Sequence record: PQ351811
Source: Shigella phage SSG23
Direction: 5' to 3' (one strand)
DNA length: 64,000 bases
Part shown: piece by piece, positions 735 to 42,112 of the stretch
Layout of the letters: every line of letters begins with the position of its first letter
How positions within the stretch are numbered: the first letter of the stretch is position 1
Notes under the pieces: model-generated
What the model was told of the DNA's origin: nothing
Seen by the model: only the letters and a program-made list of their open reading frames with translations
The model's database searches: none
Program-made: the position numbers and the translations under genes

Positions 735-906
735 GAACTAAAACAGCGCGGTTAGAATGATTTGGACGTCACCTAGCCGCATTTATTGCAGCGTATGGGG
801 TTAATCCGGTACGCTAAAGCATTCACTTGCTAGGCCGCTAGCAGGTTGGAGACAAGGAAGATTCGCTACCTTCCCTATAAGCCACTCTTCGGAGTGGCTT
901 TTTTAT
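735..906 (+). ncRNA. candidate structured noncoding RNA (about 170 nt)
   Basis: No ORF over 15 codons and no SD; three internal hairpins (e.g. TGCTAG-GCCG-CTAGCA); bounded by late-promoter motif and intrinsic terminator. Confidence 0.3.
880..906 (+). terminator. intrinsic terminator
   Basis: AGCCACTC-TTCG-GAGTGGCT stem-loop followed by TTTTTT. Confidence 0.65.
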
Positions 907-932
907 TGCCTAAAATTTTTTAAAAAAAGTTG

Positions 933-961
933 TTGACACCAAATCGTGCCTATAGCATAAT
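933..961 (+). promoter_or_regulatory. sigma70-consensus early promoter (PeSL-like cassette)
   Basis: TTGACA, 17-bp spacer, CATAAT; followed by conserved leader ACACCCATCGAAACGAAACAC and GGAG SD. Confidence 0.7.
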
Positions 962-1007
962 ACACCCATCGAAACGAAACACACTTTCTTAAACGGAGAA
1001 TCAAATT

Positions 1008-1193
1008 ATGGCACGTCGCATCACTAAAGCACTGAAAGCAGTAAGCAAAGAAAACGTAGTAGCTATTCTGGTAATCTGGGGTTATAACGAAGAATCCGCT
1101 AAACAGAAAGTTGAAGCGGGGTTTGAACTGGCAGTAAAAGCAATGCCGAATGATGACTCTGTAGGGCTGGCAAATTATATCGCATATTTCTGA
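1008..1193 (+). CDS. hypothetical early protein
   Basis: Track ORF directly downstream of promoter and GGAGAATCAAATTATG initiation region. Confidence 0.55.
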   Translation: MARRITKALKAVSKENVVAILVIWGYNEESAKQKVEAGFELAVKAMPNDDSVGLANYIAYF

Positions 1194-1201
1194 TAAAAGT
1201 G

Positions 1202-1231
1202 TTGACAGGGGGAGGATAACTCCCCTACAAT
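1202..1231 (+). promoter_or_regulatory. sigma70-like early promoter
   Basis: TTGACA then inverted repeat GGGGAG..CTCCCC in spacer then TACAAT; conserved leader CATCAACGAAACGGGAGAATCAAAATG. Confidence 0.6.
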
Positions 1232-1260
1232 ACAACCATCAACGAAACGGGAGAATCAAA

Positions 1261-1482
1261 ATGATCAACTTTAAAGAAGCAGCGAAAGAAATTATCGACT
1301 TTGAGCGCGAATTGTTTGAAATGGAACCAAATATGAGCAAACTGGAACTGGCTAACCAGATCTGGTACTCTAAAATGAATCCATCTGATCGCCTAGAAGT
1401 TATGAACATTGTAGGCGAAGTGAAAGGTAGTGCACTAATGAAACTCCGCGCTTGCCACGCTTACATCGCTGATCAACTGTAA
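1261..1482 (+). CDS. hypothetical early protein
   Basis: Track ORF after promoter with GGAG SD. Confidence 0.55.
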   Translation: MINFKEAAKEIIDFERELFEMEPNMSKLELANQIWYSKMNPSDRLEVMNIVGEVKGSALMKLRACHAYIADQL

Positions 1483-1493
1483 GAGGGTATATT

Positions 1494-1682
1494 ATGGGGG
1501 AGAAACCATTAGTACAACTAAGAGTACGCTATAACCAGATTTTAGCATTACTTAAGGCTGAGGGTGTAGATCCATCGGACCGCGAGGCTGTAAAAGCGTG
1601 TCTATCTGATACGGTACAACCAAAACAAAACTATGCTTGTTATATGTACTTTCAAAATCGATTGAATAACGTTAAGTGTTGA
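1494..1682 (+). CDS. hypothetical protein
   Basis: Track ORF; SD GAGGG upstream; tiles with neighbours. Confidence 0.5.
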   Translation: MGEKPLVQLRVRYNQILALLKAEGVDPSDREAVKACLSDTVQPKQNYACYMYFQNRLNNVKC

Positions 1683-1691
1683 GGTGATACT

Positions 1692-1880
1692 ATGGAAGAC
1701 AAAATTGAACAATTACGCGAATCCGCTAAAGAGCATGGTATGAGCGAAGAGTTTGTAGAATGGTTTATTTCTAAAAAGGCTGATTCCTGCGGGTGCTTTA
1801 ACTTCATTACTATGTCCATTATGTGGGAAGGTTGGAAAGGTGCAGTAGAAACTGCTCTAGAAATTATGAAAAAAGACTAA
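1692..1880 (+). CDS. hypothetical protein
   Basis: Track ORF; SD GAGGTG upstream. Confidence 0.5.
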   Translation: MEDKIEQLRESAKEHGMSEEFVEWFISKKADSCGCFNFITMSIMWEGWKGAVETALEIMKKD

Positions 1881-1887
1881 AAAAGTT

Positions 1888-1916
1888 GTTGACAATGGGT
1901 CGGGTGTATAGCATAA
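1888..1916 (+). promoter_or_regulatory. sigma70-consensus early promoter (PeSL-like cassette)
   Basis: TTGACA-17-CATAAT; 8-bp inverted repeat GGGTGTAT/ATACACCC straddling -10; conserved leader. Confidence 0.7.
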
Positions 1917-1959
1917 TACACCCATCGAAACGAAACACGAACTACTAAGGAGTATCAAA

Positions 1960-2286
1960 ATGAAACCAGTATCTGTTAAAGTTATCTTCTCTGAATCTTC
2001 TGTATTCGCTAACGCAAACGAAGTATTCCACTTCGAAGACTTCGAGCGTAAAGCACTGGACGCGGCAGCAAAAGCCTATGAAAGCGAATATGACAAAACT
2101 CAAATCGAGGTTACATTCGAAGACGGCACTACTTACGCTTGCCGCCTTGACCTGGGTGATCGTCTGTCTGGCTTCCGTCACCATGTAGAGAAGACAATCG
2201 CTTTCTCTAAAACCGAAAAAGGAAAACACTACTTTTCTGTATTCGGTACTGAAAATCTGGATTTCTTGAAAACGGTTTCTTTCTAA
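1960..2286 (+). CDS. hypothetical early protein
   Basis: Track ORF after promoter and AAGGAG SD. Confidence 0.6.
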   Translation: MKPVSVKVIFSESSVFANANEVFHFEDFERKALDAAAKAYESEYDKTQIEVTFEDGTTYACRLDLGDRLSGFRHHVEKTIAFSKTEKGKHYFSVFGTENLDFLKTVSF

Positions 2287-6808: not shown

Positions 6809-7050
6809 TGTATGTTATGACACCTTATAGTAGTAGATCTTACATCACCCCAAATAAACTGTATAAGTTTACGCCAGATGAAAGAATGTCTACCTACGGT
6901 TACATCAAAGATGATAAAGGATACGAACTTTTTATTTCTCTGAAAAGTTGTGCATACCTTGATGACCGTCCGTGGACACTGATCGAAAAACCAAAACAAC
7001 CTGAGAATAAAGGTCTTTGGAATGTGCTAAAAAAATTCTTGAAAAAGTAG
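6805..7050 (+). CDS. small protein, tandem paralog 2
   Basis: Track ORF 6790..7050, ATG 6805 after GGGAG SD; paralog of 6614 ORF. Confidence 0.5.
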   Translation: MMYVMTPYSSRSYITPNKLYKFTPDERMSTYGYIKDDKGYELFISLKSCAYLDDRPWTLIEKPKQPENKGLWNVLKKFLKK

Positions 7051-7079
7051 TTGACAGCATGAAACGGGGGTAGTAATAT
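7051..7079 (+). promoter_or_regulatory. sigma70-like early promoter (PeSL-like cassette)
   Basis: TTGACA-17-TAATAT with inverted repeat GGGGGTA/TACCCCC; conserved CATCGAAAC leader. Confidence 0.65.
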
Positions 7080-7110
7080 ACCCCCATCGAAACAACAACG
7101 GAGTATTAAA

Positions 7111-7449
7111 ATGAGTGTTAAAGAAGTGTTTGTTTATACCGACTATGACGGGTGCGCCTATATCACCGCCGGAAAACTTTACCGATGTGAAATTATTCAT
7201 GGTACATTAGGTCGAATTATGTGCGATCCGGTTACAAAATTGTGGAAAAGCAATCCTAGTGAGCGAGAAACTCTTATTAACCTAGATCCAGACGGTTGTT
7301 CACATTTGGACTATAGAAAATGGCATATCGTGACACATGATGCTTATGGTATTCATCTTGCTACTAAAGAATTAACTATAGAGAAATTCAAGTTTAAAGA
7401 AATCCCGTTTGTATACTGGCTTCGCAATTTGTTCAAGAAAGGAGAATAA
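7111..7449 (+). CDS. small protein, tandem paralog 3
   Basis: Track ORF after promoter; GKLY....DPDGCSHLDYRKW resembles paralogs 1 and 2. Confidence 0.55.
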   Translation: MSVKEVFVYTDYDGCAYITAGKLYRCEIIHGTLGRIMCDPVTKLWKSNPSERETLINLDPDGCSHLDYRKWHIVTHDAYGIHLATKELTIEKFKFKEIPFVYWLRNLFKKGE

Positions 7450-7450: not shown

Positions 7451-7873
7451 ATGGAAACAATTAATGTACATGTTCGTCGTAGCAAGCTGCGTCGATTCTT
7501 CGAAACTGAAATGCGCAAAACTAATGCACAGATCAAAGAAAAGTGCTTGAATGATGGTTACGGTGAGTATATTTTCATTCGCTTTAGTCCGCATATGATC
7601 GACCGTCTAACCGATCGTCATATCGATGAACATAAGACAATGGAACTATTCAATAAGGTAGAAACTCGTTTACCTGAGATCTTCAAGTTCTTGAAAATGG
7701 AAGACCGACCTAACCGACTAGAAATCACTGACGGTAACATGTGGATCGGGATGACAGTAGATCTAATCGAAGACGGTAAACCGTATTACGGGCTATGCTG
7801 CCGAATGATTATAGAGAATCCAAAGCGACTGGCGGGTAAAATGTCGGCGGTTGTTTTGAAAGTGGACCAATAA
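7451..7873 (+). CDS. regB: RegB-like site-specific endoribonuclease
   Basis: METINVHVRRSKLRRFFE..RLEITDGNMWIGMTV..CRMIIENPKRLAGK matches remembered T4 RegB; SD AAGGAG. Confidence 0.75.
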   Translation: METINVHVRRSKLRRFFETEMRKTNAQIKEKCLNDGYGEYIFIRFSPHMIDRLTDRHIDEHKTMELFNKVETRLPEIFKFLKMEDRPNRLEITDGNMWIGMTVDLIEDGKPYYGLCCRMIIENPKRLAGKMSAVVLKVDQ

Positions 7874-7894
7874 TGGAAATTGGTTAAATTAATG

Positions 7895-7924
7895 CTTGAC
7901 TTTCTGGTGATAGGGCTATATTAT
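7895..7924 (+). promoter_or_regulatory. sigma70-like promoter
   Basis: TTGACT, 17/18-bp spacer, TATTAT upstream of 7959 ORF. Confidence 0.5.
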
Positions 7925-7958
7925 GGAATCAGAAAGTTAAGCCAAACAGGAGAAATTG

Positions 7959-8549
7959 ATGTTAAAAGTTCTAAAAGCGATAGTATTGAGTCTGTCACTA
8001 GCCGTTGGTGCTACACACGCATCGACTAGCGCACCGATCAAAAAAGCGCCGATAGACAACTTTACAGCACACCAACTAGATAATTTACATTTCGCCTATC
8101 AATACGGTGAGCAATTCGAGAAAAGCGGTAAGTTGAAAAATGACCATCCGAATATTCGCTATAACGGAAAGGGTTTAGGTCACATCCTGGCGGGTATCGC
8201 ATGGCAAGAATCAAGCGCGGGTGCAAACTTAGCACCAAAGAAAAATCATCATGCTTATGGATTATTTCAAAATTACCTTAAAACGGTGAAAGCGAAAAAT
8301 GCAAAGCGCGGTGTTAAAATGAGTGATCGCCAGACTATCAACTTTATCATGAATCGCGAGGTTTCTGCATTCTACGCGATGGATGAGTTAGCATACTGGC
8401 TGGATGTTCGAAACGGTAATATTCGACTCGCGCTAGCTTCTTACAATGCAGGATGGAACTATAAAGCCGGGTTAGGTTATGCTGATGACGTACTAAAAAA
8501 GGCTAACCATCTAAAGAGTAAAGGCATTCTTAAAACTAAACGCTATTGA
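7959..8549 (+). CDS. secreted soluble lytic transglycosylase (SLT domain) with signal peptide
   Basis: N-terminal signal peptide MLKVLKAIVLSLSLAVGATHA; SLT motifs AWQESS, GLFQ, SYNAG. Confidence 0.75.
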   Translation: MLKVLKAIVLSLSLAVGATHASTSAPIKKAPIDNFTAHQLDNLHFAYQYGEQFEKSGKLKNDHPNIRYNGKGLGHILAGIAWQESSAGANLAPKKNHHAYGLFQNYLKTVKAKNAKRGVKMSDRQTINFIMNREVSAFYAMDELAYWLDVRNGNIRLALASYNAGWNYKAGLGYADDVLKKANHLKSKGILKTKRY

Positions 8550-13593: not shown

Positions 13594-13605
13594 AACATAA
13601 TCAAA

Positions 13606-13636
13606 AGCCATCCGAAAGGGTGGCTTTTTCGTTTTT
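13606..13636 (+). terminator. intrinsic terminator
   Basis: AGCCATCC-GAAA-GGGTGGCT followed by TTTTTCGTTTTT. Confidence 0.65.
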
Positions 13637-13641
13637 AGGTG

Positions 13642-13670
13642 TTGACAACCGGATCGTGGTATAGCATAAT
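13642..13670 (+). promoter_or_regulatory. sigma70-consensus early promoter (PeSL-like cassette)
   Basis: TTGACA-17-CATAAT; leader CACATCGACAACAAAAGGAGAACCAAAATG. Confidence 0.7.
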
Positions 13671-13700
13671 GCACACATCGACAACAAAAGGAGAACCAAA

Positions 13701-13910
13701 ATGATTAATCCCGTAGCCGCAGCACTTGCTTCCGAAGAAACTTTGAAGTATATGGTAGAACACGCAGCAAAGAAGGGAGAAATTGTTACTGCCGATGAGA
13801 TCGTAGAAACCATGCTTCGCGATCCGAAGGGTAACACAGCAAAGTTTTTCGGTGATCATCTTAAGCTGGCTTACAAAACAATTATGGAGACCGTAAAGAA
13901 TGCAAAATGA
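13701..13910 (+). CDS. hypothetical early protein
   Basis: Track ORF after promoter, GGAG SD. Confidence 0.55.
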   Translation: MINPVAAALASEETLKYMVEHAAKKGEIVTADEIVETMLRDPKGNTAKFFGDHLKLAYKTIMETVKNAK

Positions 13911-14866: not shown

Positions 14867-14884
14867 AAATTTTCTTAGAAAGTG

Positions 14885-14913
14885 TTGACAGCGATCCGGT
14901 GTTATTGCATAAT
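14885..14913 (+). promoter_or_regulatory. sigma70-consensus early promoter (PeSL-like cassette)
   Basis: TTGACA-17-CATAAT; conserved leader ACACCCATCGAAACGAGATACAC. Confidence 0.7.
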
Positions 14914-14954
14914 ACACCCATCGAAACGAGATACACTTTCTAGGAGAATCAAAA

Positions 14955-15176
14955 ATGGCAACTGTTAAAATTATCAAATCTTCCGCTGGCTTCGGTTTCA
15001 TGCGTGGTGCTAAGTACCCGATGATTATTGAAAACGTTGCCATCGAAGATGGTATGGCTAAAGTGACCAGCCGTCAATTGTTCGAAGCTGGTGTTAAAAC
15101 TGCTGAATCATGGGCGCTTCGCTATCCTAACAAAACATGGTCTTTCTTCCTGAATGGTGAAGCTGAGATCATCTAA
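14955..15176 (+). CDS. hypothetical early protein
   Basis: Track ORF after promoter, AGGAG SD. Confidence 0.55.
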   Translation: MATVKIIKSSAGFGFMRGAKYPMIIENVAIEDGMAKVTSRQLFEAGVKTAESWALRYPNKTWSFFLNGEAEII

Positions 15177-16010: not shown

Positions 16011-16046
16011 TTTTATGGGCTATCCTTCGGGGTAGCCTTTTTTGTT
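16008..16046 (+). terminator. intrinsic terminator
   Basis: GGGCTATCC-TTCG-GGGTAGCC followed by TTTTTTGTTTT. Confidence 0.65.
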
Positions 16047-16053
16047 TTGGGTG

Positions 16054-16081
16054 TTGACAAAGATAATCACAATGCTATAAT
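16054..16081 (+). promoter_or_regulatory. sigma70-consensus early promoter
   Basis: TTGACA-16-TATAAT; leader with AAGGAGAATCAAAGATG. Confidence 0.7.
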
Positions 16082-16110
16082 GCACGCATACCAACTAAGG
16101 AGAATCAAAG

Positions 16111-16401
16111 ATGACCACTGAACAATTAATCAAACATATCCGCAACATTATTTGGGATCTGTCTGGTGATAAAGAGGAACAAGCTGAACGCATTTTAGCT
16201 AAACTCTATAAGCGCCGTGACCGTGGAGTATCAGCAAAGAAAGTGGAAACTTTCAAAGAGTTATCTTTCATCGAAGCTAAAAGGGATGGATTGATTTATC
16301 AGTTGACAGATGGTTACTGGTGCTATGATAATACTCGTTATGACACAGCAACTGATGCATTAAAAGCATGTAATGACCATCTTCGCAAAACTACCATTTG
16401 A
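16111..16401 (+). CDS. hypothetical early protein
   Basis: Track ORF after promoter. Confidence 0.55.
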   Translation: MTTEQLIKHIRNIIWDLSGDKEEQAERILAKLYKRRDRGVSAKKVETFKELSFIEAKRDGLIYQLTDGYWCYDNTRYDTATDALKACNDHLRKTTI

Positions 16402-18113: not shown

Positions 18114-18129
18114 AATCATAAAAAAGTTG

Positions 18130-18158
18130 TTGACAGGGGATCGCCGATCCCCTATACT
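18130..18158 (+). promoter_or_regulatory. sigma70-like early promoter (PeSL-like cassette)
   Basis: TTGACA then palindromic spacer GGGGATCGCCGATCCCC then TATACT; conserved leader. Confidence 0.7.
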
Positions 18159-18199
18159 ACACACATCAAAACGAAACACACTTTTTAAGGAGAATCAAA

Positions 18200-18478
18200 A
18201 TGAGCAACCTGTCTTTCGCTAAAGTAGAAATTTCTAAAACTCGCGGTGGCATCAAAATCAAAACTTCCAATATCACTTCCTGCCGTGGTTGCGACCAGTT
18301 TGCGCGTGACCTTGCTGTGAAGCTGGGTATGAAAACCTTTACGGTGGAGAGCGGATCTAACTGGACCACTCTGATTGTTACTGCCGCTTGGATCAATGGC
18401 GAGTATGTAGAAAAAGCATACTTTGACATTTTCTATGACTATGAAGAAAAATGCTTTTACGCACTGCAAGACATGTAA
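18200..18478 (+). CDS. hypothetical early protein
   Basis: Track ORF after promoter and AAGGAGAATCAAAATG. Confidence 0.55.
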   Translation: MSNLSFAKVEISKTRGGIKIKTSNITSCRGCDQFARDLAVKLGMKTFTVESGSNWTTLIVTAAWINGEYVEKAYFDIFYDYEEKCFYALQDM

Positions 18479-18488: not shown

Positions 18489-18797
18489 GTGACAACACAA
18501 GATATTGTTAATGTGCTTTATATTTGGCCTACTGGTGCAATGATCTCGTATCTTATATTCTGCTTGTATGCCAGATTCGACAAGAACACGAAAGAGATCG
18601 ATACAGGAGCATTTTGTATTGCTGCAATCATCTGGCCTATAACGTGGACCGTAGTTTATGTTGTTATGTGTTATAAAGGGCTGAAATGTTTTGGTTTGAT
18701 GATCGCGGGTAAACCGGAAGCGAAGCCGCGCAAGCATACCGGATTTACCCCAAAACAAGAAGACGACGGTCGATATAAACCGGAAGAAGATTTTTAA
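18489..18797 (+). CDS. small membrane protein (GTG start)
   Basis: Track ORF 18423..18797; AAGGAGG SD 7 nt upstream of GTG 18489; two hydrophobic segments. Confidence 0.45.
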   Translation: MTTQDIVNVLYIWPTGAMISYLIFCLYARFDKNTKEIDTGAFCIAAIIWPITWTVVYVVMCYKGLKCFGLMIAGKPEAKPRKHTGFTPKQEDDGRYKPEEDF

Positions 18798-18805
18798 AAA
18801 AACAG

Positions 18806-18834
18806 TTGACATGAAAATGCGGTTATCCTATAAT
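18806..18834 (+). promoter_or_regulatory. sigma70-consensus early promoter
   Basis: TTGACA-17-TATAAT. Confidence 0.7.
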
Positions 18835-18868
18835 AGCCGCATCAAATGAACGATGTGAGGATTATATT

Positions 18869-19177
18869 ATGTTTATCTCTTCTGCTACTCCAGTTAAAGT
18901 TTATGGCGAAACTGTGTATCTTCCGGCTGGCTATCGCTATGTTATTGTTGACCGTTACGGTGTAGTATATGCTTTTAAAGGCCGTCCGGTTGAGATTGAT
19001 GCTGAATATTGTACATGGGGATATAAAGCCGCATACATGGATATTCCTGATCTTGGAGTGCGCTTAGGAAGATTTGATAATGATGTTAAACCATGCTTGA
19101 TTAAGTATGCATCCTATGGTAAAACTGTTAAACCAAATAGCGTCGGCTGGATTGATGACGGCGTTAACGTGAAATAA
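18869..19177 (+). CDS. hypothetical protein
   Basis: Track ORF after promoter and GAGGATTATATTATG cassette. Confidence 0.55.
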   Translation: MFISSATPVKVYGETVYLPAGYRYVIVDRYGVVYAFKGRPVEIDAEYCTWGYKAAYMDIPDLGVRLGRFDNDVKPCLIKYASYGKTVKPNSVGWIDDGVNVK

Positions 19178-21553: not shown

Positions 21554-22027
21554 ATGTTACTGACTGCTAAGAGTGCTAAAGAGTACAAACAAGAACTATT
21601 CGAAAAACAAGGGGGCATTTGCCCCCTTTGTCAATTACCACTTTTTGAGGATATGAGCAAAAACCATCTTGACCATGATCATGATCTAGATGGGAAAGGG
21701 CAAGGCCGCGTAAGGGGATTGCTTCATTCGTGTTGCAACCGCCTAGAAGGATCGTTGACCGGAGACTTTAAACGGTTTGGTGTTGGTGCTTTAGGTGCTG
21801 ATTTCGTTGTTTGGGCTACAAACTATGTTAATTACATCAAAGGAGACTACACCAACAATCATTTACATCCTCAATATGCTGTTGATAAAGTAAAACGATT
21901 TTCACGCTTGACACGCGCGGAGATGGTTGCTATTATGGACGCAGAAGGTTTCGATTACTGCGACGCTGATACACGAGAAGAAATCACGAAGAAGTATAAG
22001 AAACAATTCATACAAAGATTAAGATAG
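21554..22027 (+). CDS. 49: recombination endonuclease VII (Holliday junction resolvase)
   Basis: MLLTAKSAKEY...CPLCQ..NHLDHDHDL..GKGQGRVRGLLHSCCN matches remembered T4 gp49 zinc/H-N-H region. Confidence 0.85.
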   Translation: MLLTAKSAKEYKQELFEKQGGICPLCQLPLFEDMSKNHLDHDHDLDGKGQGRVRGLLHSCCNRLEGSLTGDFKRFGVGALGADFVVWATNYVNYIKGDYTNNHLHPQYAVDKVKRFSRLTRAEMVAIMDAEGFDYCDADTREEITKKYKKQFIQRLR

Positions 22028-22030
22028 TAG

Positions 22031-22059
22031 TTGACAATAAGAAATGGGAGTAGTAAAAT
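22031..22059 (+). promoter_or_regulatory. sigma70-like early promoter (PeSL-like cassette)
   Basis: TTGACA-17-TAAAAT with inverted repeat GGGAGTA/TACTCCC. Confidence 0.65.
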
Positions 22060-22090
22060 ACTCCCATCTAATCAAGAAGGAGAATCAACA

Positions 22091-22351
22091 ATGCGTAAGA
22101 TGTTTAAAGCTGGTGTGGCCTATGTTTTTAAATCTGAGCAAGCACATAAAGACTTCTTAGATGATGAATACGAAGGGGTGAAAGATACCTACGAAGTCAT
22201 CAAGAATGGGTTTACTGTTCTTAAAGTGTCACCTGTTGGTTATGTAAGTGAAATAGCGGTTGATGGGAAAACATACACCGCTAAAGACTTTGACCCGCGT
22301 TGGGAATTTATGCTGCTTCCGTGTGAGCGCATTCTGTTCCGTGCTGTTTAA
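22091..22351 (+). CDS. paralog family B member (single N-module)
   Basis: Track ORF 22031..22351, ATG 22091 after AAGGAGAATCAACAATG; GFTVLKV..DGKTYTAKDF module. Confidence 0.55.
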   Translation: MRKMFKAGVAYVFKSEQAHKDFLDDEYEGVKDTYEVIKNGFTVLKVSPVGYVSEIAVDGKTYTAKDFDPRWEFMLLPCERILFRAV

Positions 22352-22377: not shown

Positions 22378-22938
22378 ATGGTACAGAAAACGTATAAATT
22401 GTATCCGGCTAAGTCTTCAAATGATGCTGTTTTTGAACGAGGTCGTTATTACACTTTCCGTAGTGCAGAAACAGCCGCAGAATTTATCAAACGATGTCCG
22501 CAACATAATAAGTTCTTGTATGACGTGCTTTGTAACGGCTTTAAAGTTCTCACTGTTGATGCGATGGGGCGTGTGTATCTGGTAGAAACTCATGGGTATG
22601 AAGGTGCATCTGTTCTGATTGCTGCAAACGAGCGCAAATACTTTAAACGCATCACTAAAAAGCAGTTTGAAGAAATGAAACCAGTTAAGAAAGAAGAATC
22701 TCTGGAAGATCTGATTAACTTGTTTGGTAAAGTTCGCTCTATCTCCTTTGCGATTGAAGATGACATTACCGACAATAAAATCTTTGTCAAGAACGCGGAA
22801 GACCTGAAAGAGTTCCTTATTGAAAATAGATCTCGACTGGAAACCTTTCTTGAAAGTGAAATTATTCGACATGATACCTACGCTAAATTCAGCGCCGAGA
22901 AAGTGGAAGAACTGAAAGAGATTAAAAAGTCACTTTAA
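22378..22938 (+). CDS. paralog family B member
   Basis: ATG after GAGGATTATATTATG; GFKVLTVD..NERKYFKRI.. plus helical C-module LEDLINLFG...LKEFL. Confidence 0.55.
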   Translation: MVQKTYKLYPAKSSNDAVFERGRYYTFRSAETAAEFIKRCPQHNKFLYDVLCNGFKVLTVDAMGRVYLVETHGYEGASVLIAANERKYFKRITKKQFEEMKPVKKEESLEDLINLFGKVRSISFAIEDDITDNKIFVKNAEDLKEFLIENRSRLETFLESEIIRHDTYAKFSAEKVEELKEIKKSL

Positions 22939-22941
22939 CGC

Positions 22942-22970
22942 TTGACATGATGAAACGGGAGTAGTAAGAT
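22942..22970 (+). promoter_or_regulatory. sigma70-like early promoter (PeSL-like cassette)
   Basis: TTGACA-17-TAAGAT with GGGAGTA/TACTCCC inverted repeat. Confidence 0.65.
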
Positions 22971-23001
22971 ACTCCCATCTAAACAACGAGAGGATTATAT
23001 T

Positions 23002-24180
23002 ATGGCTAAATTCTTTGAAGGTCATTACTATGCATTCCGTGAAGGCGGTAAAGATGAGTTTCTAGACTTTTCTCGCTATTCAATTATTCTGACCGATGCT
23101 TCGCGCCGTGGTCATATTCGAGTTGCTGAAATCGTAGAAAAGGGCTTTAAAGTATTAGAAAAAGATGACCACGGTCATGTTATTACTATTGAAGCTGGAG
23201 ATGTAGTTTATTCCGCTGAGGATATCGTTTATTATTGGTCTACTATGATTATGCACAATGAGCGCAAATACTTTAAACGTATCTCAAAAGAGGCATACGA
23301 AGCGATGAACAAGAAAGAGGATGCAATGCCGACTTACTTTGAAAAAGGTAAATGTTATTCGTTTACCCCAGAAGGTTTGCAAGAATTTAAGCGATTCTGG
23401 GGAGAGCATGACCCAGAACACAAAGAAGCCATGAAACTTGCTGATTTTGTCGAATATGGCTTTTTGGTTGAAGAAGAATTGCACGGATCAGCTACCATGA
23501 TCACCGCGAAAGGTGAAACCGTTAAGGCAGATCGTTTTTGTGATCAATGGGCTTGTGTGTTTGACGGTGGCGAATTTGAATACTTCGCGGAAATCACCAA
23601 CCATCAATTTCATTCTATGCAAGCGGAAGGTCAGCGATTTAAAGTAGGCGAACGCTACAAGCCAAATCAGCATAATTTGCCTCATTGGTTTAACACTGAA
23701 ACCGTATCCAGCCATGTTATTGAAATTGTTCAAAAGCTGGAACATGGATTTAAGGTAACTAAAGTAGATCCTTTCGGAAGTGTTGACGCGGTTGAAGTTG
23801 ATGGTGTAGAATATACTCCCAAATCTTTCGGGCTTTGCTGGTATCATCTGATCAGCAATGATGAACGTTATAACTTTGTTGAACTGCCATCTGAACCGGA
23901 AGAAGCACTAGAGGATCATGATCATCTATCTGAACTGGTTAAGCTGTTTGGTGATCTGCCGGATGGTGTAGGGGTGGCGGTAATGGGTGAAGGTGCGGTT
24001 ATCCGAAACCTGAAAGACTTTAAAAAGTTCTTGATTGACATGCTGCCTAAACTTGATGATAATCTCGATACAGATATTCAGAATCGCAAAGAAATTGTTA
24101 AAGAGACTGAAAAAGAGATCGAAGCGATTCGAGCAATTCGCCAGAAGGTGAAAGCAGTAAAGAAAAAAGTTCGTGCTTGA
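23002..24180 (+). CDS. paralog family B member (multi-module, 392 aa)
   Basis: Repeated GFKV..D..G.V...V.G..Y modules, NERKYFKRI, C-terminal LSELVKLFG..LKDFKKFL helical module. Confidence 0.6.
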   Translation: MAKFFEGHYYAFREGGKDEFLDFSRYSIILTDASRRGHIRVAEIVEKGFKVLEKDDHGHVITIEAGDVVYSAEDIVYYWSTMIMHNERKYFKRISKEAYEAMNKKEDAMPTYFEKGKCYSFTPEGLQEFKRFWGEHDPEHKEAMKLADFVEYGFLVEEELHGSATMITAKGETVKADRFCDQWACVFDGGEFEYFAEITNHQFHSMQAEGQRFKVGERYKPNQHNLPHWFNTETVSSHVIEIVQKLEHGFKVTKVDPFGSVDAVEVDGVEYTPKSFGLCWYHLISNDERYNFVELPSEPEEALEDHDHLSELVKLFGDLPDGVGVAVMGEGAVIRNLKDFKKFLIDMLPKLDDNLDTDIQNRKEIVKETEKEIEAIRAIRQKVKAVKKKVRA

Positions 24181-24205
24181 CATGCGAAGGGAGTATGCTA
24201 TAATA
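24177..24205 (+). promoter_or_regulatory. sigma70-consensus early promoter
   Basis: TTGACA (overlapping upstream stop), spacer with GGGAGTAT/ATACTCCC repeat, TATAAT. Confidence 0.7.
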
Positions 24206-24234
24206 CTCCCACTTAACAACGAGAGGATTATATT

Positions 24235-24729
24235 ATGTGGGTACAAGATGTTTGGTATACTGTAACTAAAGAAAACCTTGACGCATTCAGCGACCAATCT
24301 TGCGCTAATAGTTCAATTGCTGGTATCCTTACTGATGTGTTTGGTGGTGTTGATAAAATTCGTTTTAAAGTTGTTGTTGGTTCGATGGGGGGTGTAAAAG
24401 ACCTATACACCGAAGATAAAGACCTTGATCTTGAACTTCGTCTTCGTATTGATAATGCAAGTCTAGGTTATTGGTTTGAAGATAACGAATATGAATACTT
24501 CACCCCAGCAATTAAAGTTTTTGCGACTAAACTGGAAGCTGTACTAAATATCCGACCAATTAATGTTGACGGTTATATTATCAAAAATATTCAGGATTGG
24601 GAGTTGTATCTAGATCAGATTATCCGAAATAGTAAGCAGGAAGCCGCTAATAAGAAGCGACAAGAGATTAAACAGCTTAAGGCTGAACTGGAAGCTAAAG
24701 AAAAAGAATTAGCAGAACTGGTAAAATAA
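24235..24729 (+). CDS. hypothetical protein, paralog-family-like
   Basis: ATG after GAGGATTATATTATG; WFEDNEYEYF motif; coiled-coil C-terminus. Confidence 0.55.
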   Translation: MWVQDVWYTVTKENLDAFSDQSCANSSIAGILTDVFGGVDKIRFKVVVGSMGGVKDLYTEDKDLDLELRLRIDNASLGYWFEDNEYEYFTPAIKVFATKLEAVLNIRPINVDGYIIKNIQDWELYLDQIIRNSKQEAANKKRQEIKQLKAELEAKEKELAELVK

Positions 24730-26641: not shown

Positions 26642-26674
26642 AGCCGATCCGAAAGGGTCGGCTTTTTCGTTTTG
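26642..26674 (+). terminator. intrinsic terminator
   Basis: AGCCGATCC-GAAA-GGGTCGGCT followed by TTTTTCGTTTT. Confidence 0.7.
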
Positions 26675-26679
26675 GGGTG

Positions 26680-26707
26680 TTGACAACATGATTAGATAAT
26701 GTATAAT
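26680..26707 (+). promoter_or_regulatory. sigma70-consensus early promoter
   Basis: TTGACA-16-TATAAT; leader CACATCGAAAACAACGAGAGGACAACATG. Confidence 0.7.
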
Positions 26708-26739
26708 GCTCACATCGAAAACAACGAGAGGACAACATG

Positions 26740-27293: not shown

Positions 27294-27839
27294 ATGAAAT
27301 CATTAAACCGTAAACGTAAAGCACAACGACACATGGAACACGCAAAATCAATTAATGTTGATATGACATTAGAACATATTGATGATGATTCATGTTATGA
27401 TGATGAACCAACAAATAAGATCCCTGTATGGATGGTTACGGTAAGAATTGACAATAAACAGATCGAAGAGACACACGATGCTTTAGCCTTGTTTCACGAA
27501 TGGCATCCGGTTAATATCGGGTGGGAGGAAAACAAAGCAAAAGGTCAATACTTCCTCACCTGTTCGTGTGGTGTAGCCGGATGCGCTGGGTATTGGGAAC
27601 CTGTTGTGATTCGGGTTAAAAAGGATACTGTACAATGGTCTGTGCGTAAAGAGCAGGGATACAGCAAAGGTGTGATCGGTACTGGCGAGAATGTGATTTA
27701 TCTTAAACGTAAAGATTACGAAGAGTGCCGGAAGTTTATTTTGAATATGCTGCGTTCTTATCCAGATGACAATTTCATGTTTGCCGGAGAGTACCTACCA
27801 GGCCGCCTGTGGTTGAAATCTCTCGAAAAATTTAAATAA
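27294..27839 (+). CDS. hypothetical protein
   Basis: Track ORF 27288 (GTG), ATG 27294 after GAGGTG SD; CSCGVAGCAGYW Cys cluster. Confidence 0.55.
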   Translation: MKSLNRKRKAQRHMEHAKSINVDMTLEHIDDDSCYDDEPTNKIPVWMVTVRIDNKQIEETHDALALFHEWHPVNIGWEENKAKGQYFLTCSCGVAGCAGYWEPVVIRVKKDTVQWSVRKEQGYSKGVIGTGENVIYLKRKDYEECRKFILNMLRSYPDDNFMFAGEYLPGRLWLKSLEKFK

Positions 27840-27843
27840 ATGC

Positions 27844-27872
27844 TTGACGGGGATCGCGAGATCCCCTATACT
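27844..27872 (+). promoter_or_regulatory. sigma70-like early promoter (PeSL-like cassette)
   Basis: TTGACG then palindromic spacer GGGGATCGCGAGATCCCC then TATACT; conserved leader. Confidence 0.65.
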
Positions 27873-27914
27873 ACACACATCAAGACGAGATACAACTTTA
27901 CAGGAGAATCAAAT

Positions 27915-28067
27915 ATGTGGACTTTACTGATTTGGGAAACTGAAAACGCACAAGTAGAAATCCGTGAATACGAATACCTAAGCCCAGCTTATCTATTGGC
28001 ATCTCGCGGCGGTTACTATAAAGCGCAGATTGTAAACGAGTTCGGGGTAATTGAATATGAGTTCTGA
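27915..28067 (+). CDS. small hypothetical early protein (50 aa)
   Basis: ATG after AGGAGAATCAAATATG; within track ORF 27840..28067. Confidence 0.45.
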   Translation: MWTLLIWETENAQVEIREYEYLSPAYLLASRGGYYKAQIVNEFGVIEYEF

Positions 28068-34271: not shown

Positions 34272-35297
34272 ATGAAAATTTTGCTTTTGGGTGATCTGCA
34301 TACTGGTATCGGTGGCGATGATCCGTGGGTGCATGAGTATATTTTAGACACGATCAAGAAAGCGGTTGATTATTCTAAAGAAAATGGTATTAAGACATGG
34401 ATTCAAACAGGGGATTGGTTTGATTGCCGCAAGGCGATAACTCATGAAACCATGAAGTTTAACCGTACTAAGGTCATCCCATTACTGGAAGAGGCTGGAA
34501 TTACTTGTTATATCACGGTCGGGAATCATGATATGTTTAAACGAAACAAGATCCAGCCTAACGCACCGCGTGAAGTGTTAAGCCAGTATGATTGCATTAA
34601 GGTCATCGATAAGCCGGAAACAGTTACCTTTGATGGTGTATCGTTTGATCTGTTCCCGTGGTTTTGTGATGATAATAAATCAGAGGTTTTAGAGTTTATT
34701 CAAAATTCATTCAGCGAATATTGTGTAGGCCATTGGGAATTGTCTGGTTACTATTTCTATAAAGGTCTAAAATCCGAAGGTTATAGCGCGGACTTCCTCA
34801 AGAAATACCGTGAAGTGTTTTCCGGTCACTTTCATACTATCAGTGATGGCGGTAACGTAACGTATATTGGCACACCATACACACTAACGGCGGGTGACGA
34901 AAACGATCCGCGTGGTTTTTGGGTATTCGATACCGATACACACAAAAAAGAGTTTATCCAGAATGATAAAACATATCATGTGCGTATCACTTACCCGTCA
35001 GATGATAAAATCGACGTAGAACGCTATAAGGGGCTTAGTGTGCGTCTTATCGCAACGGTCGCTGATAATGGGTTAACTAAGTTAGAAAGCGCGTTAGAAG
35101 CCGTTGTGCATAAGCTAAAAGTGGTCCATAAGCTGGAGAGTAGCGCATCACAGGAAACAGGTGTTATTGAAGTTAAAAGCACTATTCAGATGGTCTATGA
35201 ATATCTGGAAGAACAAAACCTAGAACCGGAAGAACTTGCGGCAGTTAAGCGCATCTCTGATGAACTTTTAGCCGAAGTAAATAGCGCAAAAAGTTAG
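34272..35297 (+). CDS. 47: recombination endonuclease subunit gp47 (Mre11/SbcD-like)
   Basis: Phosphoesterase motifs LLLGDLHTG, GDWFD, GNHD, GHWE, GHFH; close to remembered T4 gp47. Confidence 0.9.
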   Translation: MKILLLGDLHTGIGGDDPWVHEYILDTIKKAVDYSKENGIKTWIQTGDWFDCRKAITHETMKFNRTKVIPLLEEAGITCYITVGNHDMFKRNKIQPNAPREVLSQYDCIKVIDKPETVTFDGVSFDLFPWFCDDNKSEVLEFIQNSFSEYCVGHWELSGYYFYKGLKSEGYSADFLKKYREVFSGHFHTISDGGNVTYIGTPYTLTAGDENDPRGFWVFDTDTHKKEFIQNDKTYHVRITYPSDDKIDVERYKGLSVRLIATVADNGLTKLESALEAVVHKLKVVHKLESSASQETGVIEVKSTIQMVYEYLEEQNLEPEELAAVKRISDELLAEVNSAKS

Positions 35298-35326
35298 TTG
35301 ACGCGGGGAGAAATCCCCGTTATACT
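35298..35326 (+). promoter_or_regulatory. sigma70-like early promoter
   Basis: TTGACG then spacer with CGGGGA-GAAA-TCCCCG hairpin then TATACT. Confidence 0.6.
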
Positions 35327-35350
35327 CTCTAAAAATTGATGGAGGTTATT

Positions 35351-35602
35351 ATGATTACTGATGCACTGAAAGAATTTAACGCAAGTTTAGAGAAGTTCAC
35401 TAAGATCCGAGTTTTTGAGGTTGTTCGGAATGGTCAACATATGCTATCCTTCCGTTCTAACTACGGGATGTGGACACATGACGAAATCCCGTTTGATCGT
35501 GATAATATCACTAGACTGGAACTAGCAACCATTGTATCCCGTAAGATTGCTGATATTACCCAGAATGTTATTGCGCGTGGGTCTATGGAGTCTGTACGAT
35601 GA
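35351..35602 (+). CDS. hypothetical protein
   Basis: Track ORF 35336..35602, ATG 35351 after GGAGGTT SD. Confidence 0.5.
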   Translation: MITDALKEFNASLEKFTKIRVFEVVRNGQHMLSFRSNYGMWTHDEIPFDRDNITRLELATIVSRKIADITQNVIARGSMESVR

Positions 35603-39423: not shown

Positions 39424-40110
39424 ATGAAACTGACTAAAGAAACTATTGCTACTCTGAAAAACTTTTCCGCTATTAACCCAGGTATCATCCTGAAAAAAGG
39501 AAATGTGCTGATCACCAAAAACATGACAAACGTTGTATATGGTGAAGCGACTCTGAATCAAGAACTGGAACACGAAATTGGGATCTATGATCTTAACTCT
39601 TTCCTGGGTATTCTGAATCTGGTAGGCGATGAAGCAGATATTACGGTTGATAACCGCACTGGAAACATTCGTGTGTCTAACGATCGTCTGAAAATTAACT
39701 ATCCTGGTGCTAGTGCTGCCGCTATCGTATCACCGAAAGGCCGAGTTACTCCACCTGCAAGCGATGTAGATTACGAACTGAGCAACGACGATCTGAAACA
39801 GCTTATGAAAATGAGCAATCAGCTTAAAGTGGACCGCCTTGAATTTCTACCGATTGATGGTCGTCTGATGATCAAAGGCTGGGAAGAGATTGACAAAAAC
39901 AATCCTAATGAGATGTTTTGTCTTGACATGGGCGAATATACCGGAACCGCCGACTTCCATTTCTTTATTCGTAAAGACAACATGAAACTGGTTGCTACTG
40001 ACTTCGGCGATTACAAACTGAGCTTCACTCGCCGTAAGGCTGTATGGCTGGCAAGTGAAACCGTGTCTTACATGATCGCGTGTGACCTTGACTCCAGCTA
40101 CACCGACTAA
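39424..40110 (+). CDS. 45: sliding clamp gp45
   Basis: MKLTKETIATLKNFSAINPGIILKKG... matches remembered T4 gp45 N-terminus; 228 aa; SD AAAGGTGA. Confidence 0.9.
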   Translation: MKLTKETIATLKNFSAINPGIILKKGNVLITKNMTNVVYGEATLNQELEHEIGIYDLNSFLGILNLVGDEADITVDNRTGNIRVSNDRLKINYPGASAAAIVSPKGRVTPPASDVDYELSNDDLKQLMKMSNQLKVDRLEFLPIDGRLMIKGWEEIDKNNPNEMFCLDMGEYTGTADFHFFIRKDNMKLVATDFGDYKLSFTRRKAVWLASETVSYMIACDLDSSYTD

Positions 40111-40123
40111 TATAATGTTTGTG

Positions 40124-40146
40124 GGGAGTGTAAATACTCCCTTTTT
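40124..40146 (+). terminator. hairpin plus T-run (candidate attenuator between genes 45 and 44)
   Basis: GGGAGT-GTAAAT-ACTCCC followed by TTTTTAATG. Confidence 0.4.
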
Positions 40147-40174
40147 AATGATGTAATTTGTGAGAGGTGATTAT

Positions 40175-42091: not shown

Positions 42092-42112
42092 GATACTGAT
42101 GGGATAGGGGTG

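Follow-up and report, generated by a model that had tools for sequence, protein, structure and literature searches.

PeSL-type early promoter cassettes in an RB49-like phage: fixed positions, hairpins and apparent exchange of sequence between copies

The 64-kb stretch of DNA analysed here (the window), which is 100% identical in sequence to Shigella phage SFHK24, a Krischvirus (RB49-like), encompasses 24 copies of a cassette located just 5' of start codons. We are highly confident that these are the PeSLs of the RB49 group, that is, host-sigma70 early promoters combined with an upstream AT-rich tract, a short A/C-rich leader, a strong Shine-Dalgarno sequence and, in most cases, a GC-rich hairpin, and working along the lines proposed below. 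The family is already known, and its detection here is a correct rediscovery, not a new finding, because published PeSLs sit at the same places in RB49. The PeSLs of RB49 and phi1, phages of the same genus (Arbiol, Comeau, Kutateladze, Adamia and Krisch 2010, Genome Biol Evol 2:140, PMC2839356), have the same positions and anatomy, namely, an AT-rich stretch with the preceding stop codon, a sigma70 promoter, a stem-loop (often GGGG...CCCC, in one of five positions), a Shine-Dalgarno sequence and a start codon. The published work, which included lacZ tests and mini-circles, counted 51-52 copies per genome of ~164 kb, a density similar to that of the window, and the work was later widened to further T4-like phages (Comeau et al. 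2014, PMC4122927).

A likeness to the PeSL elements of RB49-like phages had been proposed in an earlier note, and the published anatomy together with the orthologous positions in RB49 and phi1 bears it out, so that a published regulatory element had been identified correctly from the raw letters, without tools. The discovery value is small: PeSLs were described in the same phage group in 2010, and the public records of relatives annotate these promoters, with 21 of the 24 cassettes (including the one at 7896) already marked as promoters in GEC-3S and several labelled 'hypothetical early promoter' in RB49.

Anatomy and position of the cassettes

All genes in the window are on the + strand, and the distance from the -10 hexamer to the start codon is 24-80 nt in all 24 cassettes (Table 1). 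Twenty of these had been listed in the earlier note, and the repeated family that it described is real: at every one of those coordinates, TTGAC[A/G] is followed 16-18 nt 3' by a -10-like hexamer, with the start codon 24-46 nt past the -10, and the three copies reported within 925-1960 are found at 933, 1202 and 1889. The other four cassettes are those at 7896, 40088, 44842 and 58425.

Table 1 Cassettes of the window, and the regB gene
Feature	Coordinates	Strand	Elements	Start codon
933	879..1010	+	intrinsic terminator 879-905, AT-rich tract, TTGACA-17-CATAAT, leader ACACCCATCGAAACGAAACAC, GGAGAATCAAA	ATG 1008
1202	1192..1263	+	TTGACA-18-TACAAT, spacer hairpin GGGGGAG/CTCCCC(T), GGAGAATCAAA	ATG 1261
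1889	1874..1962	+	TTGACA-17-CATAAT, hairpin GGGTGTAT/ATACACCC across -10, canonical leader, GGAG	ATG 1960
7051	7041..7113	+	TTGACA-17-TAATAT, hairpin GGGGGTA/TACCCCC across -10	ATG 7111
regB	7451..7873	+	gene	
7896	7886..7961	+	TTGACT-17-TATTAT, without GC-rich hairpin, GGAG	ATG 7959
13642	13603..13703	+	intrinsic terminator 13603-13628, then TTGACA-17-CATAAT, GGAGAACCAAA	ATG 13701
14885	14875..14957	+	TTGACA-17-CATAAT, weak 5-bp repeat GGTGT/ACACC, leader ACACCCATCGAAACGAGATAC, GGAGAATCAAA	ATG 14955
16054	16017..16113	+	intrinsic terminator 16017-16038, then TTGACA-16-TATAAT, GGAGAATCAAA	ATG 16111
18130	18120..18202	+	TTGACA-17-TATACT, spacer hairpin GGGGATC/GATCCCC, leader ACACACATCAAAACGAAACAC, GGAGAATCAAA	ATG 18200
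18806	18796..18871	+	TTGACA-17-TATAAT, 10-bp hairpin ATGCGGTTAT/ATAGCCGCAT across -10, GAGGATTATATTATG	ATG 18869
22031	22021..22093	+	TTGACA-17-TAAAAT, hairpin GGGAGTA/TACTCCC, GGAGAATCAA	ATG 22091
22942	22932..23004	+	TTGACA-17-TAAGAT, hairpin GGGAGTA/TACTCCC, GAGGATTATATTATG	ATG 23002
24177	24167..24237	+	TTGACA-16-TATAAT, TTGACA overlapping the upstream gene's stop codon, hairpin GGGAGTAT/ATACTCCC, GAGGATTATATTATG	ATG 24235
26680	26642..26739	+	intrinsic terminator 26642-26663 after nrdD, then TTGACA-16-TATAAT	ATG 26737
27844	27834..27917	+	TTGACG-17-TATACT, spacer hairpin GGGGATC/GATCCCC, GGAGAATCAAA	ATG 27915
35298	35288..35353	+	TTGACG-17-TATACT, spacer hairpin CGGGGA/TCCCCG	ATG 35351
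40088	40078..40177	+	TTGACT-17-TATAAT at gene 45 end, then hairpin GGGGAGT/ACTCCCT and T-run 40123-40142	ATG 40175
42113	42103..42176	+	TTGACA-17-TATAAT 5' of gene 43 (DNA polymerase), GGAG	ATG 42174
44842	44832..44916	+	TTGACA-16-TATAAT in last codons of gene 43, downstream hairpin GGCGGGT/ACCCGCC	ATG 44914
51160	51150..51223	+	TTGACA-17-TATTAT, downstream hairpin GCCTCC/GGAGGC and T-run	ATG 51221 (modB)
51728	51718..51788	+	TTGACA-17-AATAAT, without hairpin, GGAGAATCAA	ATG 51786 (srd)
57442	57432..57506	+	TTGACA-16-TATAAT, -10 in loop of 13-bp hairpin, then T-run (terminator/promoter overlap)	ATG 57504
57811	57801..57872	+	TTGACG-17-CATAAT, hairpin GGGGATAT/ATATCCCC	
58425	58415..58536	+	perfect TTGACA-17-TATAAT within preceding small ORF, 80 nt 5' of rIIA, GAGGATTATATTATG	ATG 58534

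As in PeSLs, sigma70 boxes with a 16-18-nt spacer, oriented with the downstream gene, are present in all 24 cassettes. The promoter formula given in the earlier note, TTGACA-17-(C/T)ATAAT, holds in its strict form for eight sites in the window, against 0.04 expected; the other copies depart from it at 1-2 positions or in a spacer of 16 or 18 nt. At a threshold of 11 or more matches to the 12 sigma70 consensus positions, the + strand has 34 sites and the - strand has 0 (~1.2 per strand in shuffled sequences), and 23 of the 34 lie at most 95 nt 5' of a start codon, a zone that comprises 18.6% of positions. An unbiased repeat search recovered the cassettes as the largest families of dispersed direct repeats (52 nt in 8 copies, 77 nt in 5 copies and 54 nt in 4 copies). 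Alignment of the cassettes, the check suggested in the earlier note, gives the consensus AAAAAAGTnGTTGACA...TATAATACnCnCATCnAAAC...GGAGAATnAAnTATG, the first block of which is the consensus of the 25 nt 5' of the -35, where the A+T fraction is 0.44-0.84 and reaches at least 0.60 in 19 of the 24. The stop codon of the preceding gene lies inside or adjoins this AT-rich tract.

At the 3' end, the cassettes have a Shine-Dalgarno sequence and a start codon, again as in PeSLs. GGAG serves as the Shine-Dalgarno sequence of 15 of the 24 cassette-led genes compared with 22 of 100 other genes (p=3e-4), so that its description as a feature of the family applies to most copies, not all; GGAG or GAGG is found in 22 of the 24. 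Likewise, the conserved leader stands in reduced form: the full 21-nt ACACCCATCGAAACGAAACAC occurs only four times at three or fewer mismatches, and a shorter core (A[T/C]-N5-CATCNA..) is recognisable in ~13 cassettes.

These promoters share with the early promoters of RB49 (Nolan et al. 2006, PMC1524935) a G at -36, the TTGACA-type -35, T or C at -12, a C-rich -3 to -1 segment, an upstream element rich in A and placement 5' of early genes and novel ORFs; the RB49 consensus is stated there to agree with the 5'-end mapping of Desplats et al. 2002. These two papers deal with promoters only and leave the hairpin and recombination aside. In agreement with the earlier note, MotA-type middle promoters are not in evidence: the pattern of a MotA box (TGCTTtA) 11-13 nt 5' of a TAnnnT -10 has two matches in the window versus 2.5 expected, one of them being cassette 24177 itself, and RB49 has neither motA nor the middle-promoter consensus (PMC1524935).

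Two other systems invite comparison. The promoter/stem-loop repeats of the T-even IP locus (Repoila et al. 1994, as described in PMC2839356) are like the cassettes in that they flank variable small genes and form autonomous early units. They are termed analogues, not homologues, of PeSLs (PMC2839356): the T4 -35 is GTTTAC-like, in contrast to TTGACA in the cassettes, and the T-even stem-loops are AT-rich and variable. Lambdoid morons likewise consist of a gene with its own promoter and terminator, and the linkers of Botstein's modular theory provide conserved homology for exchange; unlike the cassettes, which themselves supply the homology, morons lack a repeated conserved boundary sequence.

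Hairpins in and around the promoters

The inverted repeats noted earlier in these promoters are real and far exceed both shuffled and random controls. Between the -35 and ~+8, a stem of 7 bp or more that includes four or more G-C pairs is present in 12 of the 24 cassettes, compared with 0.12 expected from shuffles and 0.47 from random 43-nt windows (P ~7e-15), and the fold z-scores of the cassette hairpins range from -2.4 to -6.8. A stable stem-loop in one of the five PeSL positions is thus a feature of the family, with 12 located in the spacer or across the -10, four upstream terminators, three downstream hairpins and five cassettes with no or only a weak hairpin. No Rfam family matched the window at gathering thresholds.

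Within the hairpin class overlapping the -10, 99% of cells are paired, against 32-69% in slid controls, and changes on both sides occur in 3 of 8 pairs. Because the four loci counted were picked for forming hairpins, the 99% figure is partly circular, and the useful information comes from the compensatory pair types and the slid controls. A single fixed-register covariation model for the whole class was rejected: the hairpins at 7051, 22031 and 22942 are shifted by 2 nt relative to those at 1889, 57811, 24177 and 18806, and pairs were therefore counted on the latter four loci only. Among orthologues, the few substitutions in stems preserve the hairpin on the sense strand via G.U pairs; for the 12 hairpins of the window, a comparison of sense and antisense stability, aimed at separating RNA-level from DNA-level action, gave no significant difference (Wilcoxon p=0.13).

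Hairpins followed directly by a T-run, that is, canonical intrinsic terminators, are found upstream of 933, 13642, 16054 and 26680, at 57442, and downstream of 40088 and 51160. The remaining 11 in-promoter hairpins are followed by ATCGAAAC-type sequence instead of a T-run; most in-promoter hairpins therefore are not canonical intrinsic terminators. This lack of a U-run would favour hairpins that act on the promoter itself and not on read-through RNA, with the GC-rich spacer and discriminator tuning open-complex lifetime or ppGpp/DksA sensitivity, or serving as the site of a phage factor that shuts off early promoters; the 3' arm also falls on the discriminator region, C-rich from -3 to -1, of the RB49, RB69 and 44RR early promoters (PMC1524935). 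Covariation between the two arms speaks against this, as a discriminator effect would require no complementary 5' arm. Furthermore, four cassettes have a canonical upstream terminator in place of an internal hairpin and one has its -10 in a terminator loop, which fits termination, and the stem-loop of one PeSL reduced read-through into lacZ to much the same degree as rrnB T1 did (PMC2839356). We consider such promoter tuning improbable.

Compensatory changes in conserved hairpins could also be invoked for mobile DNA elements (MITE- or integron-like), in which a dedicated recombinase recognising the GGGG...CCCC hairpin would move genes; Arbiol et al. speculated on a specific DNA-binding protein and likened units of a PeSL and an ORFan to integron cassettes (PMC2839356). 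Nevertheless, the register of the hairpin varies between copies, unlike a recombinase site, and the polymorphisms in the stems are compatible with G.U pairing only on the sense strand, which points to RNA and not to duplex or cruciform DNA. There are no terminal inverted repeats or target-site duplications around the cassettes, no cassette has moved among the eight genomes compared, and RB49 and phi1 are not known to encode an integrase or recombinase (PMC2839356), all of which makes this explanation highly implausible. MITE or transposon identity as such was rejected on the grounds that positions are fixed in the eight genomes and the inverted repeats form hairpins inside the cassette instead of marking its ends.

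Fixed positions, gene content and exchange between cassettes

All 24 cassettes occupy orthologous positions in RB49, phi1, JSE, GEC-3S, Makalu_003, Brandy and Whisky, with zero gains or losses among the eight genomes, and substitutions among orthologues cluster in spacer sequence outside the hairpin. A BLASTN search with one cassette as the query hit 8-12 places in each Krischvirus genome and gave weak partial matches in four Cronobacter T4-like phages, with no match outside T4-like phages; in the sequence collection, the leader was recovered from just three stretches, located on two RB49-sized contigs.

Comparison with the seven relatives revealed 16 structural differences, 9-10 of which are homing endonucleases. 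A boundary falls inside a cassette in three of the 16 events versus 0.8 expected under uniform placement (P ~0.04), two of the three being homing-endonuclease insertions, and gene junctions with a cassette were hit in 4 of 24 cases compared with 12 of 96 without (one-sided Fisher p=0.40; small sample). Given these counts and the fixed complement of cassettes, the proposal in the earlier note that the cassettes probably drive modular shuffling is weakly borne out at most in the window. Its statement that they bracket nearly every accessory gene block is not borne out there, given that cassettes also head core-gene units, among them gene 43, uvsX-41-61-56, modB, srd-dda-39 and rIIA. We see no essential difference from the PeSLs of Arbiol et al.; the link to gene gain and loss is weak in the window, and the published evidence of shuffling comes mainly from RB49 ORFs 192-211, another region of the genome (PMC2839356).

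In JSE, cassette 51160 forms the right edge of a homing-endonuclease-linked replacement, and an HNH-AP2 gene is inserted exactly upstream of the -35 of cassette 57442. The ORF at 57870-58064, which in the window separates the cassette 57811 leader (CATCGAAA) from the Shine-Dalgarno block AGGAGAATCAAAATG at 58045, is absent in JSE, where the leader and Shine-Dalgarno halves join as one canonical cassette; both edges of this gain or loss lie in conserved cassette blocks.

Single lineages also contain tracts in which one cassette has come to resemble another. The stretch common to cassettes 18130 and 27844 measures 24 nt in SFHK24 and 23 nt in Whisky, compared with 13-14 nt elsewhere, the initial transcribed sequence of 27844 having been converted to that of 18130 in these two phages only. 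Cassettes 22031 and 22942 share 41 nt in Brandy and 11-14 elsewhere, 22942 having become 22031-like, and the leader of cassette 1202 in Whisky has been converted to the canonical leader. As read from these alignments, the tracts do show that cassettes exchange sequence.

These observations bear on the simplest alternative, namely, that the cassettes are ordinary strong early promoters that became similar by convergence on the sigma70, UP-element, discriminator and ribosome-binding optima and have no role in recombination. Such promoters would be expected to keep their orthologous locations across the eight genomes without gain, loss or movement, to precede core and accessory genes alike and to show no enrichment of indel boundaries at their junctions, all of which is observed, along with gene-content differences that are mostly homing endonucleases. 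In contrast, clustered multi-base changes that make a cassette match a paralogue in single lineages (27844, 22942 and the Whisky 1202 leader) are a signature of gene conversion and not of point-by-point convergence, and neither the ORF with both edges in cassette blocks nor the published mini-circles with chimeric PeSLs, which were sequenced from PCR products (PMC2839356), fits promoters alone. We therefore regard this alternative as unlikely, albeit the strongest of those considered, and favour PeSLs that occasionally exchange sequence.

Proposed working and the RegB/S1 link

Right after infection, unmodified E. coli RNA polymerase would start at each cassette, at the A of CATCGAAAC ~7 nt past the -10, and read the + strand gene block behind it. 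A hairpin sited in the spacer or across the -10 would be missing from the RNA of its own promoter and present only in read-through RNA from upstream; there, as with hairpins just upstream or downstream of the promoter, it would attenuate or end that RNA, so that each cassette would insulate its block and re-set expression. Promoter and terminator or attenuator activities have been measured only for PeSL206/205, PeSL193/192 and PeSL211/210 of RB49/phi1, all outside the window (PMC2839356), and we infer insulation by the hairpins that lack a U-run by extrapolating the attenuator role from one assayed PeSL. Occasional recombination between cassettes would follow from the 14-32 nt of exact identity common to them, the expected outcome being short conversion tracts and the occasional gain or loss of an ORF; in the 60-kb early region, such exchange would contribute little to changes in gene content relative to homing endonucleases.

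The Shine-Dalgarno block GGAGAATCAAA nearly matches the strong-site consensus for T4 RegB/S1 cleavage, GGAGRAYARAA (PMC3014915), in which an unpaired GGAG between genes, at the translation-initiation region of an early gene, is followed by the A-rich tail RAYARAA. The relaxed pattern GGAGRAY[A/C]RAA has nine matches in the window versus 0.67 expected, and all nine are Shine-Dalgarno sequences: seven in cassettes, one at 58046 and one, at 7441, that of regB itself. The regB site is the exact T4 consensus, whereas the other eight have C in place of A; the RB49-type RegB is divergent (PMC3014915). Judging from this resemblance, the GGAG(A)ATCAAA block probably also marks early mRNAs for cleavage by RegB/S1.

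For the early region of Krischvirus genomes, homing endonucleases explain most of the differences in gene content, more than exchange at PeSLs does, which tempers the general claim of PeSL-driven shuffling. The analysis makes two additions to the known picture, the gene-conversion tracts between cassettes and the likely RegB/S1 site within the cassette. Lineage-specific conversion tracts and the near-match of the Shine-Dalgarno block to RegB/S1 sites are not mentioned by Arbiol et al. (PMC2839356), and neither RegB coupling nor concerted evolution is addressed in published PeSL work. For phage engineering, the cassettes may offer natural insertion points for early-expressed cargo, insulated if the proposed role of the hairpins holds. 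Tentatively, and with some doubt, we suggest that the cassettes are three-part modules that 'express, insulate, then destroy', comprising a promoter, a hairpin present only in read-through RNA and GGAGAATCAAA doubling as a RegB/S1 site, and kept uniform via short-patch gene conversion; every gene behind such a cassette would inherit early timing and rapid shut-off.

Probable early promoter cassettes of the window

The first 8 kb of the window show 100% identity to Shigella phage SFHK24 (PQ351812.1, 35342-43341) and 92-95% identity to RB49, phi1, JSE, GEC-3S and ~50 other genomes of Krischvirus (RB49-like, Straboviridae). According to the record annotation, the window is the early region, which starts with small ORFs near nrdC.11 and regB, continues through tk, nrdD/G, 55, 47/46, 45/44/62/regA, 43, uvsX, 41, 61, 56, modB, srd, dda and 39, and reaches rIIA, rIIB and 52, with essentially every gene on the + strand.

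The earlier note listed at least 20 copies of a promoter/leader cassette, each denoted here by the position of its -35. All of them carry TTGAC[A/G], a -10-like hexamer 16-18 nt on and a start codon soon after, and our count, made from annotated gene junctions, is 24 cassettes, namely those 20 along with 7896, 40088, 44842 and 58425. Alignment of all cassettes gives the consensus AAAAAAGTnGTTGACA-(spacer)-TATAATACnCnCATCnAAAC-(leader)-GGAGAATnAAnTATG; the conservation of the leader had been overstated, with the full 21 nt found at <=3 mismatches only 4 times. In a model-free repeat search, no dispersed direct-repeat families of the window are larger than those formed by the cassettes.

The exact motif TTGACA-N17-YATAAT occurs 8 times in the window vs 0.04 expected. 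On the + strand, 34 sites agree with the sigma70 consensus at 11 or more of its 12 positions; the - strand has 0, the chance level estimated from shuffles being about 1.2 per strand, and separate promoter scans agree. A start codon follows within 95 nt for 23 of the 34, as against 18.6% of all positions. Another 11 such sites, all on the coding strand, are intragenic and >95 nt away from the start codon that follows; the RB49 record marks hypothetical early promoters within genes 41, 46 and ORF031, which may be counterparts of some of these.

Most likely, the cassettes are the early promoters of the phage, read by unmodified host sigma70 polymerase. Their consensus is the same as that of the RB49 early promoters, which includes G at -36, T or C at -12 and a C-rich -3 to -1 segment, along with an A-rich upstream element (Nolan et al., PMC1524935). 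The earlier note was right about the absence of MotA-type middle promoters: MotA-box plus -10 combinations yield 2 matches in the window vs 2.5 expected. This was known before, RB49 being reported to have neither motA nor middle promoters (PMC1524935).

Several other features of the window are listed in the table. The non-coding stretch that adjoins the first cassette upstream folds at -65 kcal/mol (z=-4.1 vs shuffles), ends in an intrinsic terminator and matched no Rfam family at the gathering score; it is 96-98% identical across the seven relatives compared below, roughly as much as the flanking coding DNA, and therefore offers no covariation to read. It could correspond to a small structured RNA. 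Missing from the SFHK24 annotation is a 100-aa ORF whose N-terminus resembles a signal peptide; by position it corresponds to the 100-aa rI (lysis inhibition) gene annotated in relatives. In its place, the SFHK24 record shows an ORF on the minus strand (10758-10913) and an rI.-1 ORF whose upstream extension reaches 10927, probably an annotation error. Tandem paralogous genes include 3-4 ORFs with near-identical N-termini, MEWE/MKWE..GKTY (repeat families D4 and D8), and two neighbouring goF-like genes with common internal repeats (D10) that are separated by cassette 22942.

Features of the window (cassettes are named by the position of the -35)
Feature	Position	Strand	Remark
Hairpin wholly in spacer	1202, 18130, 27844, 35298		4/12
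Hairpin across -10, most of hexamer in loop	1889, 7051, 18806, 22031, 22942, 24177, 57442, 57811		8/12
Canonical intrinsic terminator just upstream instead	933, 13642, 16054, 26680		4 cassettes
Hairpin downstream of -10	40088, 44842, 51160		3 cassettes
No hairpin, or weak one only			5/24 cassettes
RegB-type matches in cassettes		+	7
RegB-type match	58046	+	1
RegB-type match before regB		+	1, exact
regB	7451-7873
GAGGATTATATTATG in cassettes	18857, 22990, 24223, 58522	+	4/8
GAGGATTATATTATG at ordinary gene junctions	2686, 16400, 22366, 46228	+	4/8
Intragenic sigma70 sites	3873, 8566, 21908, 24035, 28442, 31030, 38383, 39283, 48389, 60383, 61271	+	>=11/12 match, predicted
Homing-endonuclease insertion points in relatives	4689, 5872, 21233, 25644, 34270, 43370, 49586, 50657-51159, 57441
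Non-coding stretch, predicted fold	731-906	+	176 nt; terminator 879-905
Candidate rI ORF	10737-11039	+	100 aa
Variable ORF	11446-13593	+	715 aa; weak Ig_3 match
Tandem paralogous genes	22378-24180, 28571-30425	+

Hairpins and the proposed working of the cassettes

As the earlier note proposed, inverted repeats are a genuine feature of the family: 12 of the 24 cassettes contain, in the segment from the -35 to about +8, a stem of >=7 bp with >=4 G-C pairs, compared to 0.12 in shuffles of the same sequences and 0.47 in random 43-nt windows (P about 7e-15), with fold z-scores from -2.4 to -6.8. The hairpin positions match those of the five subclasses of promoter-early stem-loop elements (PeSLs) described by Arbiol et al. 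(PMC2839356). At four loci aligned in the same register, 99% of cells pair, a figure that is partly circular because these loci were picked for forming hairpins, and pairing falls to 32-69% when the partner is slid by 1-3 columns. Both sides change in 3 of the 8 pairs, one stem position being U-A, G-C and A-U among the copies, and it is these compensatory pair types, not the percentage paired, that are the evidence for the hairpins. With the internal stem substitutions seen among orthologues (57811 A>G, 22031 A>G, 18806 A/G), the sense strand keeps its fold energy via G.U pairs and the opposite strand loses about 4 kcal/mol, which hints that the structure matters in sense RNA; across the window hairpins overall, sense and antisense fold stabilities do not differ significantly (p=0.13).

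Transcription would start ~7 nt past the -10, that is, beyond or within the 3' arm of a hairpin located in the spacer or straddling the -10, and therefore such a hairpin would form only in RNA arriving from upstream. Arbiol et al. (PMC2839356) found PeSL promoters to be very strong and one PeSL stem-loop to be roughly as effective as rrnB T1 in reducing lacZ read-through; each cassette therefore probably terminates or attenuates the transcript entering from upstream and initiates a new one. The clearest case is cassette 57442, in which a 13-bp hairpin that holds TATAAT inside its loop is followed by a T-run and for which the GEC-3S annotation has an overlapping terminator and promoter; the 11 in-promoter hairpins without a T-run are putative attenuators.

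Ribosome-binding blocks

The GGAG Shine-Dalgarno sequence that the earlier note ascribed to the cassettes precedes 15 of the 24 cassette-led genes and not the rest, an overstatement, vs 22 of 100 other genes (odds ratio 5.9, p=3e-4). The stereotyped block GGAGAATCAAA agrees at 10 of 11 positions with GGAGRAYARAA, the consensus of strong T4 RegB/S1 cleavage sites (PMC3014915). With A or C allowed at the odd position, this consensus has 9 matches in the window vs 0.67 expected, all on the + strand and all Shine-Dalgarno sequences. The PeSL paper (PMC2839356) never mentions RegB. This resemblance suggests that the cassettes may, at their 3' end, also programme rapid inactivation of cassette-led early mRNAs. 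A second stereotyped ribosome-binding block, GAGGATTATATTATG, is present in 8 copies on the + strand of the window; it has GAGG, not GGAG, and hence would escape a GGAG-specific nuclease.

Gene-content differences and exchange between cassettes

The homologous 60 kb from GEC-3S, RB49, phi1, JSE, Makalu_003, Brandy and Whisky were compared by chaining blastn alignments to the window. All 24 cassettes are found at orthologous positions in all seven relatives, with substitutions concentrated in those spacer positions that do not belong to the hairpin; 21 of the 24 are annotated as promoters in GEC-3S, and several are labelled 'hypothetical early promoter' in the RB49 record.

That the cassettes drive modular shuffling is a published hypothesis, based on the presence of a PeSL beside 10 of 14 differential ORFans and on mini-circles, with the evidence coming mostly from the ORF192-211 region, outside the window (PMC2839356). 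The earlier note considered such shuffling probable, with cassettes bracketing nearly every accessory block; this bracketing is not borne out here, core-gene units being headed by cassettes as well, and shuffling is only weakly supported by the window. Among the 16 structural differences between the window and the relatives, a modest sample, 9-10 are homing-endonuclease genes or their footprints, so that homing endonucleases dominate the gene-content differences here; some calls come from annotation and the unannotated ones in JSE and Whisky from Pfam HNH_3, AP2 and NUMOD matches. Several of these genes in JSE and Whisky are annotated only as hypothetical.

Only 3 of the 16 events have a boundary inside a cassette vs 0.8 expected under uniform placement (P about 0.04), a test limited by the fact that indels sit at gene junctions anyway; cassette junctions are hit in 4 of 24 cases vs 12 of 96 for the others (p=0.40), that is, without excess. 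Two of the three are endonuclease insertions that abut the -35 of cassettes 51160 and 57442. The informative one, and the one clean case for shuffling, is the gain or loss of ORF 57870-58064, which is flanked by the leader CATCGAAA of cassette 57811 on one side and by a AGGAGAATCAAAATG block on its downstream side; JSE lacks this ORF, and there the leader and AGGAGAATCAAAATG halves join as one canonical cassette. Separately, the 715-aa ORF is intact only in SFHK24 and Brandy; in GEC-3S, RB49, phi1, JSE, Makalu_003 and Whisky, a 2-kb deletion leaves ~31 first and ~13 last codons and, being internal, represents loss of a variable gene inside the ORF, not at a cassette.

On a small scale, the cassettes do exchange sequence. 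The identical run common to 18130 and 27844 is 24 nt in SFHK24, 23 nt in Whisky and 13-14 nt in the other five relatives, and 3 clustered changes turn the start region of 27844 into that of 18130; the run common to 22031 and 22942 is 41 nt in Brandy vs 11-14 nt elsewhere; and cassette 1202 of Whisky now has the canonical leader ACACCCATCGAAACGA. Such changes are gene-conversion signatures, which argues against pure convergence of the cassettes. Two window cassettes share at most 32 nt of exact identity and typically 14-24 nt, compared to about 6 nt, and at most 11, for random pairs; identity of 14-32 nt is short for efficient homologous recombination, which fits the rarity of larger events.

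With one cassette as the blastn query, 62 phage records were retrieved, 58 from Krischvirus, with 8-12 places per genome, and 4 from Cronobacter T4-like phages, with partial matches at 78%; the exact leader occurs in only 3 stretches of a viral metagenome collection, on two RB49-sized contigs. The identification of the cassettes as PeSLs in the earlier note is correct: they are orthologues of the published RB49/phi1 elements, and the finding is therefore already known, the minor new points being the resemblance to RegB sites and the conversion tracts between cassettes.
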